Shown here in pieces: positions 37,414 through 47,005 of a DNA stretch of 64,000 bases. Source of the stretch: Acidobacteriota bacterium (GTDB lineage Bacteria > Acidobacteriota > Thermoanaerobaculia > Gp7-AA8); assembly GCA_019244185.1 (NCBI GenBank), contig JAFATB010000023.1:1-64000 (forward strand). Reading direction: 5' to 3'. Both the position numbers and the translations under genes were made by a program. How positions within the stretch are numbered: the stretch's first letter is position 1; each line of letters starts with the position of its first letter. The notes beneath the pieces were generated by a model. That model saw only the letters and a list, made by a program, of their open reading frames with translations. It made no database searches and was not told the origin of the DNA.

Positions 37414-37508
37414 CGGAGGCGTGTCGGAATCGAACCAACCTTTCGACGCTTCCGCGCCGAAACAACGGTTTTGAAGACCGCGGGAGCCACCAGACCCCAT
37501 TCGCCTCC
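37414..37508 (-). tRNA. selC: tRNA-Sec (anticodon UCA)
   Basis: Acceptor GGAGGCG/CGCCTCC, 6-bp D-stem with TGGT loop, anticodon loop CTTCAAA, long variable arm, TTCGATT T-loop; CCA not encoded. Confidence 0.93.
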
Positions 37509-42221: not shown

Positions 42222-42500
42222 ATGGATGAACAGGAACCGTTGCACCCGGCCATCCGCGGTCTGAAGACCGTCTGCCGCTGCAACAACATCAAATACCGCA
42301 CGATCGAGCGGGCCATCCGCGAGGGAGCGCACACGCTGACGCAGGTCGCGAACCGCACCACCGCCACGATGGGCGAGTGCGGCGGCTCCTGCACGCCGGA
42401 CGTTCAGGCCATGCTCGACGAGCTGGCCCCCGCGTATACGCAACTCCCGAAAGCCGCCCCGGCGGCAAATCCGGATGCATGGTGGGTACGGAAGAAATGA
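42222..42500 (+). CDS. BFD-like [2Fe-2S]-binding protein
   Basis: VCRCNN....I..AI..GA and ECGGSC. Confidence 0.85.
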   Translation: MDEQEPLHPAIRGLKTVCRCNNIKYRTIERAIREGAHTLTQVANRTTATMGECGGSCTPDVQAMLDELAPAYTQLPKAAPAANPDAWWVRKK

Positions 42501-42841
42501 CGAAAACTCTCGAGGTCTACCTCAAGCCTTCCTGAACGAGCTGCCGCAAGGCGGTGGCCGACCTGGAAGGTCGGGGATACGAACTGGTGAAGCACAACCT
42601 CGCGAACGACCGCCCGAGCCGCGAGCTCCTCGCGCGCCTCATCGACGAGCACGGACTCGACTCCGTGATGAACGCGCGCAGCCCCGCCTTCAAAGCCCGC
42701 AACCTCGGCGAGCGGAAGCTGGACAAGGCGGAAGCGATCGCGCTGATGCTCGAGGATCCGAACCTCATCCGGAGGCCGCTCGTCCTCGGCAAGCGCCGCG
42801 TCGTCTTCGGTCACAAGCCGGAGGAGTACGACGGCCTGTGA
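42497..42841 (+). CDS. ArsC/Spx-family selenoprotein (UxxC), Sec at codon 13
   Basis: ATG overlaps the bfd stop; MTKTLEVYLKPS-TGA(42533-35)-TSCRKA continues in frame to DPNLIRRPLV; hairpin CCGACCT-GGA-AGGTCGG at 42558-74. Confidence 0.88.
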
Positions 42842-43110
42842 CGATGATTACGCCGTCGGCGATGGCCATCGCCACGATCACGGTGATGCTCTGGATCGTC
42901 TGGAGCGACACGATCCGCGCGAAGCGGCCCGCGCCGATCCTCTACGCGGTGCGCGTGGCGCTGTATCTCATCGTCACCGGGCTCTTGATCCTGAACCTCG
43001 TGCGCTACCCGCGGCTGTACAGCAGCGGCGCGCGCGCCGTTACCATCGTGGCCGCTTTGACCGGCCTCGTCGGTGCAGTGTATTTCGCACGGAGGCTCGT
43101 AAAGCGTTAG
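42838..43110 (+). CDS. Small 3-TM hypothetical membrane protein
   Basis: GTGA overlap with the upstream stop; three hydrophobic segments. Confidence 0.7.
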   Translation: MTMITPSAMAIATITVMLWIVWSDTIRAKRPAPILYAVRVALYLIVTGLLILNLVRYPRLYSSGARAVTIVAALTGLVGAVYFARRLVKR

Positions 43111-43154
43111 TTGTGTGGAAATGGAAACCTTTCCGAGTCTTAGTTCCGTATCAG

Positions 43155-43183
43155 TAGACAGTGCGGAAAAAATGCACTATGAT
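43155..43183 (+). promoter_or_regulatory. sigma70-type promoter
   Basis: TAGACA-N17-TATGAT. Confidence 0.7.
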
Positions 43184-43189
43184 GCTTCT

Positions 43190-43323
43190 GGGTTCGGTGA
43201 GGGTTGGCAGCTCTCCGAAGCGGATCTGACGAAGTCGCGGGGCCTGCGAATCTCTCTCTCTCGATCTCCCACGACGATACGGCTACCCACAAGCCGTCCT
43301 AGCGTCGATCCTCGGCCGGACCC
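43190..43323 (+). ncRNA. Candidate 134-nt structured ncRNA of unknown family
   Basis: Starts 7 nt after the -10 box; 5' and 3' ends pair over ~20 bp with several G-U pairs; three internal hairpins; followed by a T-run and terminator. Confidence 0.7.
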
Positions 43324-43343
43324 ACTTTTTTGCTGATGATTCG

Positions 43344-43371
43344 GAGCCGCGATTCTCGCGGCTCTTTTTTT
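43344..43371 (+). terminator. Rho-independent terminator
   Basis: GAGCCGCGA-TTC-TCGCGGCTC-TTTTTTT. Confidence 0.88.
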
Positions 43372-43420
43372 CCTCCACGGAGCGCGGCTCCTGTCCGTTT
43401 TGCGACAATCCCCCCGTTTC

Positions 43421-45766
43421 ATGCCGCTTCTCCTTCATTCACTCGCCGCGCTCGCGCTCGTCGGTCTCGCGCATCGCTTCGTGCGCCCGCTCTCGCGCGG
43501 CGCGGCGCTCGTCCTCTTCGCGCTGCCGTTCGTCATCGCCGGCTACGCGCTTCTGACCTCGCGCGTCCTCGCGCCGGTCGACCTCGCGTATCAGACCGTG
43601 CCGCTCAACTGGATGAAGGAGACGTACGGCGTCAGCGACGTGAGCACCGGACTGCACAGCGACGTGCTGTCGCAGTTCATCCCGTGGCGCGCGGCCGTGC
43701 GCGACTCGCTCGCACGCGGCGAGTGGGGCCTCTGGAACCGCTACGCCTTCGCGGGCGACATCCTGCTCGCGGGCGAGCAGCCGGCGGTCTTCTCGCCGAT
43801 CACGCTCCTCGCGTGTCTGCTGCCCGCGGCGCTGAGCTTCACCTTCACCGGCGCGCTGACGCTCTTCATCGCCGCGCTCTGCGCGTTCCTCCTCGCGCGC
43901 GAACTCGATTGCGGCGAGCCGGCGGCGCTCGTCGCCGCGGCGTCGTGGTCGCTCGCGACCTCGCTCGTCGTCTTCGTACTCGTGCCGCTCGGCGCGACGT
44001 GGGCGTGGGCGCCGCTGCTGTTCGTGAGCGTCCAGCGTCTCGTGCGCGCGCCGCGCATCGCCTCCGCCGCGCTGCTCGCGTTCACGTTCACTGCATTGCT
44101 CGCGGCCGCGCATCTCGAATCCGTGTTGCTCATCGTCGCATTGGGCGTCGCGTACGCGCTGCTCGAGCTCGCGCGGCGGCCGTCGGTACGCGCGGTCGCG
44201 CTCGCGGCGGGCGCGGGCGTCGTCGCGCTGCTCGTTTCGGCCGTGCATCTCCTGCCGTTCTTCGAGGCGCTGCCGTGGACGATGGAGTACGCGACGCGCG
44301 ACCTGTTCCGCGACTCGGCGCGCGGCGTGCCGCTGCCCGACGCCGCGCTGCGGATGCTGATGACGTTCTTCCCGTACCTCAACGGACGGCCGCCGGTGAC
44401 GTCGTTCATGAACGGCGCGATCGGCAGCATTGCCACCGCGCTCGCGCTGTACGCGCTGTGGCGCGTGCGCTCGCGCGCGACGTGGTTCTTCGGCGCGACG
44501 TTCCTCGCCTGTCTCGTCATCGCGTCGGAATGGCGTCCCGTCGCGACGCTGCTCGGGCGTGTGCCGCTCTTCGACATCGCCATCTTCGACCGCATGGCCT
44601 TTGGCGCCGCGCTATCGCTGGCCGTGCTCGCCGCGCTCGGCGCCGAAGCGCTCGCGCGGCGCGGCGGCGATCGCGCGGCGGGCGCGACGCTCGCGGCGTG
44701 GTTCGTCGTCGTCGCCGCCGGCAACTACGCGTTGCTGCACGCGGCGTCCGTTCCGCGCGGTCCGGTGAAATTCGGCGAGCACGTTGTCGCCGCAGAGCTC
44801 GTGCCGCTCGCGTTCGCAGCGGCGCTGTTGTTTCGCAAACGTGCCGCGCTGCCCGCGCTGCTCGCGCTCATCATCGTGCAGCGCTGGCTCGCGGTCAGCG
44901 ACGCGCAGAAGTCGTTTCCGCGTCGCGCTGCCTATCCGCCGATCCCGATCCTCGAACCGCTGCGCGCGATCCGCACGCCGTTCCGCATCGTCGGCCACGG
45001 CAACGCGCTCATCCCCGGCACGGCCACGCTGTACGGACTCGAAGACGCGCGCGGCTACTCGGCGATGACGCTGCTGCGCTACCGCGAAACGTACGGCCTG
45101 TGGTGCGTCGAACAGCCGGTGTGGTTCAACCGCGTCGACGATCTCTCGCGGCCGTTCCTCTCATTCCTCAACGTCCGCTACGCCATCACGTGGGACCGCG
45201 CGGTGCCGCCGCCGGGATGGACGGAAGTGGCGCGGCAGCGCGGCGCGATCCTGCTCGAGAACCACAACGCGCTCGATCGCGCCTTCGTGCCGCGCGGCGT
45301 GCACGTCGGCGCGAGCACGAACGTCACGCTGATGGAGATGGCGCTCGCCACCGACTTTGCCGACCGCGCGTGGATCGAGGCGAACGTTCCCGCGCCGTAC
45401 GACTCCGCGAACGGGCCGGGGCGGCTCACGATCGCTAACGCGCGCCTCGGCTACGCGATCGACGCGGACATGCAGAACGACGGCTGGATCGTGACGTCGA
45501 TCGCGGCGTGGCCCGGCTGGCGCGCGTACGTCGACGGCCGCCGCGTCGACACGAACATCGCCAATCATGCGTTCGTCTCGGTGCGCGTCCCGCGCGGACA
45601 TCACCGCGTCGCGCTGCGCTACTTTCCGGACGGCTTCGCGGTGGGAAGGACGATCAGCGCGGTGACGCTCGCGCTGATCGTCCTCGCGTCGCTACTGTTT
45701 CATCGCCGCAAGCCGCTTCTCGAGGCTGGCGATGCGGCCGTCGCTGCGCTGCCCCTCGGGGAGTGA
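43421..45766 (+). CDS. YfhO-family multi-TM protein (GT-C glycosyltransferase-like)
   Basis: SDV..QFIPW, LWNRYAFAG, GLEDARGY, LNVRY, WPGWRAYVDG, ANHAF..V.VP.G.H.V. Confidence 0.85.
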   Translation: MPLLLHSLAALALVGLAHRFVRPLSRGAALVLFALPFVIAGYALLTSRVLAPVDLAYQTVPLNWMKETYGVSDVSTGLHSDVLSQFIPWRAAVRDSLARGEWGLWNRYAFAGDILLAGEQPAVFSPITLLACLLPAALSFTFTGALTLFIAALCAFLLARELDCGEPAALVAAASWSLATSLVVFVLVPLGATWAWAPLLFVSVQRLVRAPRIASAALLAFTFTALLAAAHLESVLLIVALGVAYALLELARRPSVRAVALAAGAGVVALLVSAVHLLPFFEALPWTMEYATRDLFRDSARGVPLPDAALRMLMTFFPYLNGRPPVTSFMNGAIGSIATALALYALWRVRSRATWFFGATFLACLVIASEWRPVATLLGRVPLFDIAIFDRMAFGAALSLAVLAALGAEALARRGGDRAAGATLAAWFVVVAAGNYALLHAASVPRGPVKFGEHVVAAELVPLAFAAALLFRKRAALPALLALIIVQRWLAVSDAQKSFPRRAAYPPIPILEPLRAIRTPFRIVGHGNALIPGTATLYGLEDARGYSAMTLLRYRETYGLWCVEQPVWFNRVDDLSRPFLSFLNVRYAITWDRAVPPPGWTEVARQRGAILLENHNALDRAFVPRGVHVGASTNVTLMEMALATDFADRAWIEANVPAPYDSANGPGRLTIANARLGYAIDADMQNDGWIVTSIAAWPGWRAYVDGRRVDTNIANHAFVSVRVPRGHHRVALRYFPDGFAVGRTISAVTLALIVLASLLFHRRKPLLEAGDAAVAALPLGE

Positions 45767-47005
45767 CTTCGCGTAGTCGATGGCCTGCTGCATCGTCGCG
45801 CGCGCGGCGGCGGTGTCGCCTTTCGCCGTGTAGATGTCGGCGCGCGCGGTGAGCACGACCAGCTTGCGCGGACCGTAGACGCGCGCGAGCGCGCGGTCGG
45901 ACGCGGCCAGCGCCTTGTCGTACTCCTTCATCGCGTTGTAGGCGAGGGCCAGGCGCGCCGGCGGGTTGTAGTCGTCCGGGAAATCGCGCTGCGACTGCTC
46001 GAGCATCGGGATCGCCTTTTCCGGCGTGCCGAGGTCGAGGTAGGCGGCGAGGCGGTGCGAGTCGTAGACCGCGCGCTGTTCGGCGGTCTTCGCCGCGGCG
46101 GCGGACTTCTCGAGGAACGCCGCCCATTCGCCGCGCAGCTTCTTCGCGCCCGCTTCGTCTTTCGCGTCGTCGCGCGCATCGATGAGCGACATGTACAGAC
46201 CGGAGCGGTCGTCGCCGGAGAGCGTCAGCGTGTGATCGTCGAAGACCTCGCGCGTGTCCTTCTCCAGCGTCGCGATCCACTGCGCGCGCTTCGGATTCTT
46301 CTCGTCGACTTCGATCGCGCACGAGAGCCCGCTCGCCGCGACGCCGGCCGCGGACGACGTGCCCTTCACGCGCGGATACAGATCGAGCGCGCGCGTCGTG
46401 CAGCGTTCCGCGTCGCGGGCCATGCTCAGCGAGAAGAGCAGCGACTCCGCGGTGCGGCCGTAGCCGTTCCATCCCTTCGGCGCATTGCCGAGGGCCTGGT
46501 CGAAGAGCTTCGCGGCCTCGGCGTCCTTCCCTGCGGAGGCGAGCGCGTTCGCGCGGGCGAGAAGCTGATCGGCGGACGAGAGCGACTTCGCGCGATACGT
46601 CTTCTCCGCGTCGTCGAGCATCTTGCGCAACTGCGGCACGGTCGCGCCGCCGACGTAACGCATCGTCACCGCGTCACGCTTCGCGTCGAGCACGAGCAGC
46701 GTCGGCAGCGCCGGGATCGGATACTTTTTGAGGAACGACGCGCTCTTCGCGTCTTCCGTGTTGAGGCTGAGCCAGACGAACCGTCCGGCGTACCGTTCGA
46801 GCGACGCGTCCGTGAGCACGTACGCGCGCATCGAGCGGCAGGTGTGTCACCACGGTGCCCACGCCTCGACGAAGATCGGCAGATTCTTCGTCTTCGCGCG
46901 GGACACCGCCGTGGCGTAGTCGTTCTCGATGAAAGGGAGAACTTCTTTCGCATGCGCGGCGACGCTCGCCAGGAGCACCGCCGCGGCCATGAGCATGTTT
47001 CGCAT
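45692..47005 (-). CDS. Exported thioredoxin-fold + TPR selenoprotein (WUHTC), Sec at codon 53
   Basis: Signal peptide MRNMLMAAAVLLASVAAHA; LPIFVEAWAPW-TGA(46849-47)-HTCRSM in frame with ORF 45692..46831; cis-Pro motif ALPTLLVLD; TPR-like helices. Confidence 0.88.

Follow-up and report, generated by a model that had tools for sequence, protein, structure and literature searches.

The window considered here, i.e. the whole analyzed stretch of 64,000 nucleotides at the beginning of contig JAFATB010000023.1 from an Acidobacteriota bacterium, contains a structured small RNA, encoded between a gene for a small membrane protein and a gene for a membrane glycosyltransferase. Below, we report the gene of this RNA, its promoter, strand and fold, the taxa in which it occurs and its representation in RNA libraries, before turning to what the RNA might do. 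The locus comprises the following features, where P1 to P4 are the helical arms of the RNA and J2/3 is a junction strand:

42497-42841, + strand: ArsC/Spx-family gene (PF03960) with an in-frame TGA at 42533-42535
42844-43110, + strand: gene for a membrane protein of 88 aa that falls into no known family, recognized by a third-position substitution bias and a GC3 of 0.89
43155-43183, + strand: sigma-70-type promoter, with the -35 box TAGACA at 43155-43160, a 17-base spacer and the -10 box TATGAT at 43178-43183
43171-43188, no strand: degenerate inverted repeat spanning the -10 box, AATGCA-N6-TGCTTC in the window and AATGCA-N6-TGCATT in relatives
43190-43323, + strand: structured small RNA of 134 nt with a four-way junction, as judged from the fold, the homologue alignments and the model match
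43190-43212, + strand: 5' strand of the closing stem P1, pairing with 43301-43323 in 19 + 3 pairs (22 bp) with one bulged G
43214-43224, + strand: hairpin P2, UCCG-AAG-CGGA, from the fold
43225-43233, + strand: junction strand J2/3, UCUGACGAA, within which GGAUCUGAC is nearly invariant among the homologues
43234-43275, + strand: arm P3, GUCG.GGGG / UCCC.CGAC with an apical CGA/UCG, from the fold
43250-43260, + strand: apical loop of P3, AUCUCUCUCUC, 11 bases, the CU repeat of which is a putative recognition element
43279-43297, + strand: hairpin P4, ACGGCU-ACCCACA-AGCCGU, from the fold
43301-43323, + strand: 3' strand of P1, from the fold and from covariation
43326-43331, + strand: T-run directly 3' of P1, a possible terminator together with P1
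43343-43372, + strand: intrinsic terminator, a 10-bp stem with a 3-base loop (stem-loop 43343-43365) followed by T7
43401-43409, + strand: extended -10-like box TGCGACAAT of the downstream gene, outside the RNA and 11 bases before the ATG
43421-45766, + strand: YfhO-family membrane glycosyltransferase (PF09586, E = 3.4e-22)

The promoter, stem, hairpin, T-run and terminator elements that an earlier, sequence-only reading of this DNA had listed are all found where it had placed them, and the promoter is the only promoter-like site between 42500 and 44000 (the mean for shuffled sequences is 0.1). Comparison with relatives bears out the proposal of the same reading that the RNA has a promoter of its own and starts at the base of the closing helix: in 57 of the 60 homologous loci, a -10 element of the form TANNNT is located at a constant distance, ending 7-8 bases 5' of the first G of P1, and a -35 box of the form T[AG]GAC[ACT] is found in 45 of the 60. 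Both boxes are retained in secondary copies of the RNA that have unrelated flanks. In 17 of the 60 loci, the inverted repeat that spans the -10 box is perfect (ATGCA-N5-7-TGCAT), the window having an imperfect copy; the repeat may be an operator or repressor site.

The + strand folds into a stable structure (-58.8 kcal/mol for 43190-43330, z = -2.57, with 2 of 200 shuffled sequences folding equally well), and the folding of the reverse strand is no better than chance (z = +0.34). The comparative analysis of this structure rests on two alignments and two covariance models. Alignment A1, made with MAFFT, contains 30 close sequences, 29 from the window's genus plus the window itself; model R1 was built from 30 sequences using the structure proposed in the sequence-only reading; and model R2 was built from 60 aligned matches, which make up alignment A2, fitted to the model. 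The window matches both models at 43189-43324, with 150.3 bits for R1 and 147.2 bits for R2. Homologues were thus collected and checked for covariation, as had been suggested earlier: the RNA is present in relatives, and its pairs covary in the model-fitted alignment. In A2, 93% of the cells are paired and 30 of the 44 pairs change on both sides, as compared to 8-17 in controls with the partners shifted by 1-3 columns; none of 500 shuffles reaches this value. Such two-sided changes affect 19 of the 23 pairs in P1, 5 of the 8 in P3 and all 6 in P4; the UCC/GGA pairs of P2 and the apical CGA/UCG of P3 show no covariation in A2 because they hardly vary. Since the structure is both conserved and covarying in relatives, it is more than a product of chance, and the many G-U pairs in P1 and across A2 imply that it forms on the + strand only.

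Since A2 leans towards the model to which it was fitted, the sequences were also folded singly, without any model. At least 14 pairs of P1 are formed in 54 of the 59 distinct sequences; three inner arms, that is, a four-way junction, are obtained in 48 of the 59, and two inner arms in 5. In the narrower alignment A1, covariation is weak, with 8 pairs, a count equalled by 29 of 500 shuffles. RNAalifold yielded for A1 an alternative, weak structure (-14.5 kcal/mol) and did not recover the one proposed in the sequence-only reading; as the latter is the structure that sequences folded singly adopt, we attribute this result to misaligned 3' strands and have discarded the alternative. The arms differ in how they are preserved. 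P2 is extended to UCCGAG/CUUGGA in other genera, and the P4 arm, the loop letters CCCAC of which are invariant in all 30 sequences of A1, is substituted or missing there.

Behind the RNA, two kinds of stop signals are encountered. P1 followed by U5-8 is the sole arrangement in several other genera, and most species of the window's genus are without the T-run. A hairpin with a T-rich tail is found within 90 bases downstream in 44 of the 60 loci, by lax criteria; the stems of these terminators covary freely and the length of the linker that separates them from P1 varies. The window has both signals, and its RNA is therefore either ~140 nt long, if transcription ends at P1 and the T-run, which could terminate, or ~180 nt long, as the terminator at 43343-43372 would give. 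A second terminator-like hairpin, GGAGCGCGGCUCC with a T-rich tail, is located at 43379-43399 (+), right behind the main terminator.

The RNA has a narrow taxonomic range. Of the 24 other genomes from the genus of the window, 22 contain the stretch according to BLASTN, as opposed to none of 16 genomes at a greater distance. The search with R2 recovers the RNA from 54 of the 123 other genomes of the same family, in 11 of its 43 genera; the window's own genome yields one match, and several genomes have 2-4 copies. None of the 115 sampled genomes from other families of the class and none of the 146 sampled genomes of the phylum outside the family contains a match; in these wide searches, run with Infernal's stricter filters on sampled genomes, absence means that the RNA was not found in the genomes searched. 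The tallies include the unpublished genomes G002 and G024 (also present as rows L015 and L023), and the count of the 88-aa gene given below includes G076 and G128. A motif search of genome contigs with GGATCTGAC-N6-20-GCCTGCGA proved too loose: among the at least 120 stretches listed, 80 were examined and 2 fit the model (L039 and L049). In 18 of 20 genomes from genera in which the preceding model searches had not found the RNA, none was found beside the membrane-protein gene with the model filters switched off and a promoter pattern applied, the remaining matches being plain hairpins. Two loci from other genera, L208 (- strand, ~387-560) and L210 (409-568, E = 2.4e-4), carry divergent long-stemmed RNAs behind the 88-aa gene, with the same -35 box (a GTGGACA promoter) and one to three CU-rich runs. 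The separately transcribed RNA is a conserved gene, and its homologues make up a well-supported small-RNA family that belongs to one family of soil Acidobacteriota.

The suggestion to look for the RNA in RNA libraries was also borne out, within the limits of the material. A small fraction of the words of the stretch is shared by 24 public runs, 13 of which are recorded as RNA. Four soil metatranscriptome runs were compared in the form of contigs, at 85% likeness, and the contigs stem from close relatives. In all four, contigs cover the body of the RNA, beginning at 43171-43198 and reaching 43261-43299, from where the letters go on to match relatives. In a size-fractionated library, a contig of 113 bases, with a word depth of 13,707, is joined to an adapter at 43197; two or three other contigs, with depths of 4.9-22, extend upstream into the promoter letters and may represent DNA or read-through. 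Because this evidence consists of contigs, strand, start and end cannot be read from it, and the uncovered segments 43100-43164 and 43308-43460 are uninformative, as the relatives from which the contigs stem have differing flanks.

The genes next to the RNA differ in their constancy. The 88-aa gene is the most constant linked gene, adjoining the RNA in 46 of the 60 loci (one genus has it in a convergent rather than an upstream position), and is found as a single copy in 107 of the 124 genomes of the family; its product, apparently a three-helix protein, scores above the cut-off for no Pfam or NCBIfam family. The 211-aa ORF 42475-43110 (+), which covers the same region, is an artefact made up of two genes that are read in different frames, as can be judged from the codon positions of the substitutions: over the initial 369 bases, these peak at position 1, and a peak at position 3 is confined to the final 267. 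In the ArsC/Spx-family gene upstream, the TGA at 42533-42535 takes the place of the first Cys of the family's CxxC motif (MTKTLEVYLKPS-TGA-TSCRKA); 39 of 41 relatives share this TGA, the other 2 having TGT or TGC. Such a pattern is characteristic of a selenocysteine (UxxC) protein, the reading frame of which ORF callers break in two, and a tRNA-Sec gene at 37415-37508 (-), with 71.1 bits, is consistent with such a reading.

On the downstream side, the nearest ORF is on the opposite strand in 25 of 57 loci, by crude ORF calls, and the gene families are mixed: co-oriented GT2 genes (16 loci), YfhO (3, including the window), convergent TPR genes (10) and convergent acyl-CoA dehydrogenases (5). 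In L007, the RNA is directly followed by a TPR gene that shares 69% identity with that of the window (45692-46831, -), and the locus can therefore be described as the RNA, a variable GT2/YfhO insert and the TPR gene. The TPR protein, which is syntenic in the genus, has a weak thioredoxin-like N-terminus; together with the ArsC/Spx-like selenoprotein, it lends the locus a certain redox flavour. In 12 of the 19 loci listed, a -10-like hexamer (GACAAT, TACAAT, GAGAAT, GATAAT or GAAAAT) precedes the called start by 6-9 bases; hexamers of this kind precede the co-oriented genes, for example, in the window (43401-43423), L004, L006, L173 and L020, and often lie inside TGCGACAAT. No Shine-Dalgarno sequence is seen before the co-oriented GT2/YfhO genes. 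From these sequence features, it appears that the GT2/YfhO genes probably have a promoter of their own and leaderless mRNAs.

The RNA is unannotated, as the sequence-only reading had it, and a comparison with Rfam by Infernal, the novelty check that had been proposed, confirms that it belongs to none of the families there. At the gathering cut-offs, no family matches the window except for two tRNAs; for the body of the RNA, none of the 4227 families gives a match at E <= 10, nor does any for the loci of five relatives at E <= 1. The matches to ncS54, SorY, asX2, suhB and CcsR1 are chance matches of the terminator type beside the RNA, all of them far below the cut-offs. The bacterial SRP RNA (RF00169) does not match here, the SRP RNA of this genome being located at C15:81198-81296 (+), with 67.5 bits. 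A bacterial Y RNA would be expected to go with a Ro (TROVE) protein, the gene of which is usually adjacent; there is no Y RNA match, and Ro/TROVE (PF05731) was not found in this 98.9%-complete genome. A full-text search of the literature retrieved no description of this RNA and no paper on small RNAs of Thermoanaerobaculia, although the supplements of the Weinberg papers could contain unnamed motifs. Taken as a whole, the RNA is a new family, and not a ribozyme.

Three readings would assign the RNA to a known functional type. The sequence-only reading drew attention to a hammerhead-like core, so that the RNA could be a self-cleaving ribozyme, perhaps a degenerate one, that cuts after the GUC at 43296-43298. 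In the hammerhead ribozyme, CUGANGA is found between stems I and II and GAAA between stems II and III of a three-way junction, with Mg-dependent self-cleavage at a UH site. The letters pointed out in that reading are, indeed, there: the junction strands of the window read CUGACGA-A, GAUA and GUC, thus containing CUGA and having GUC at a helix end. It is their conservation that fails. Among the 60 homologues, CUGAC is kept and then followed by AAG, GAG, GGG, ACAG or AAAAG, with the loss of G8/A9; there is no GAAA, and the window shares its GAUA with just a few close relatives, most sequences having UGACCAUA, UGAACACA or the like; the window's GUC is GUA, GUU or GUG in relatives. Furthermore, the junction is four-way rather than three-way in the 48 single folds mentioned above, and neither the hammerhead models nor those of any other ribozyme family match at E <= 10. 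On this sequence comparison, the ribozyme idea is refuted, and we see hardly any chance for it. The other suggestion of that reading, a minimal 6S-like RNA that binds RNA polymerase, has to be abandoned as well and strikes us as next to impossible. The long closing helix and the abundance of a small RNA are features shared with 6S RNA (RF00013); the latter, however, is a rod with a central bubble, which is absent here, RF00013 is silent at this locus, some relatives have 2-4 copies of the RNA, and the genome has a canonical 6S RNA elsewhere, at C2:175196-175395 (-), with 65.1 bits against a cut-off of 46.4. A cis-acting leader, i.e. a riboswitch or attenuator that acts on the gene behind it, for a GT2 polyprenyl-phosphate sugar transferase or YfhO, with the terminator as the expression platform, is a better-founded reading, albeit still a very improbable one. 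The order of promoter, structured multi-helix RNA, terminator and gene is that of riboswitches that terminate transcription; a co-oriented GT2 or YfhO gene begins 45 to ~210 bases past the RNA in 19 of 57 loci, one third of the total, including two other genera, and the space between terminator and start codon is small. By contrast, what comes next in at least 15 loci is a convergent TPR or acyl-CoA dehydrogenase gene, so that the RNA has no gene to control there, and nothing like a constant co-oriented gene of related function emerges from the mixture of families and strands described above. P1 is much longer than a switching helix; the terminator stems and the linker to P1 vary as noted, and inspection of the alignments by eye revealed no conserved case of alternative pairing between RNA and terminator and no conserved anti-terminator. 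In addition, with a -10-like box only 6-11 bases before the start codon, the downstream mRNAs would lack a 5' UTR. Since the genes that follow are of different kinds, lie on either strand and have, apparently, leaderless promoters of their own, the RNA is most probably not their leader.

We are left with two ways in which the RNA could act in trans. The reading that we favor, although we would call it an even bet, is that of a stand-alone trans-acting small RNA, the CU loop of which would pair with purine-rich sites in mRNAs. The RNA displays the features by which trans-encoded small RNAs are recognized, being intergenic, conserved, equipped with its own promoter and terminator, and represented among the transcripts in RNA libraries. 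The CU loop, to which the sequence-only reading had already pointed, turns out to be the most conserved exposed element across the homologues. When the sequences are folded singly, 45 of the 59 leave the CU run unpaired to at least 80%; this run is the one exposed element that is kept through the changes of the scaffold and it recurs in the divergent syntenic RNAs of L208 and L210, while the number of repeats changes, as if by slippage, L199 having almost none and L165 about eleven, with L022 as a further example. A repeat that is kept and yet varies in length fits the recognition of a linear partner. The long stem, the four-way junction and the long invariant paired stretches are, however, unusual for a pairing small RNA, and they fit a protein-bound RNA better. 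The main rival, therefore, is a scaffold or decoy of a pyrimidine- or helix-binding protein, with the CU repeat and the junction serving as protein contacts rather than as an antisense seed, a possibility that we regard as serious if rather unlikely. It would account for the invariant letters that occupy the upper half of P1, GGAUCUGAC and GGCCUGCGAA, inside helices and junctions, for the rigidity of the 22-bp stem and the four-way junction, for the great depth of one contig from the RNA libraries, and for the free variation in length of the CU repeat, as in a linear binding motif. The targets, too, speak for it: a crude scan of the genome finds 57 perfect sites with at least four GA repeats, six of them at RBS-like places, and such complementary sites are not enriched by a rough composition estimate, nor is any of them a convincing target. 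Against a protein partner, Ro/TROVE and CsrA were not found in the 98.9%-complete genome, and no protein gene is strictly co-distributed with the RNA, the 88-aa gene being present in 107 of 124 genomes and the RNA in 55 of 127. A more specific form, in which the RNA would be an abundant subunit or decoy of a lineage-special RNP, with loop slippage tuning the binding and with a function tied to the 88-aa protein, the sugar transferase and YfhO, appears more doubtful still. Two further points speak against the pairing model: Shine-Dalgarno targeting may matter less if many genes of this organism are leaderless, as the neighbouring ones seem to be, and the match to Hfq in the genome is just below the cut-off (26.6 versus 27 bits).

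The mechanism that we envisage is as follows. The RNA's own sigma-70-type promoter sets the start at the first G of the 22-bp closing stem, and transcription stops at the T-run behind P1 or at the next terminator, the gene extending over 43190-43323, or up to ~43372. The longest arm of the four-way junction displays the CU-repeat loop in a single-stranded form. This loop would be the working part of the molecule, pairing in trans with GA-rich, Shine-Dalgarno-like stretches of mRNAs and, in doing so, altering the translation or stability of the target mRNA. The rigid scaffold, together with the invariant junction letters GGAUCUGAC, would provide stability and, perhaps, a contact with a protein.

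Acidobacteriota are among the most abundant bacteria in soil. With the RNA described here, Rfam would gain a well-defined family, and the genomes of this lineage could be annotated better; its loop, its junction and the possible operator on the -10 box offer a handle on RNA-based regulation in an uncultured group of bacteria. As a lineage-specific small RNA, it is a solid rather than a surprising find.

Among the known systems, two groups of RNAs invite comparison with this family. Acido-1 (RF01686) and Acido-Lenti-1 (RF01687) are orphan non-coding RNA motifs restricted to Acidobacteria (Weinberg et al. 2010, PMC2864571) and, like the RNA described here, have no tie to a particular gene; their models match neither the RNA body (E <= 10) nor the loci of the five relatives (E <= 1). 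The closer functional parallel is with LhrC1-5 of Listeria and the UCCC-containing small RNAs RsaE, RNAIII, SprD and FsrA, which are likewise small and separately transcribed, and multi-copy in some genomes (PMC4132741). In both cases, an exposed CU- or C-rich loop motif is conserved: LhrC uses CU-rich loops, and RsaE and others use UCCC motifs, to bind G-rich stretches that coincide with the Shine-Dalgarno sequence (PMC4132741). The Firmicute RNAs belong to a different phylum and share neither sequence nor fold with the family described here. Unlike their CU-rich loops and UCCC motifs, the acidobacterial RNA presents a single, variable (CU)n on a four-way junction that is closed by a 22-bp stem.
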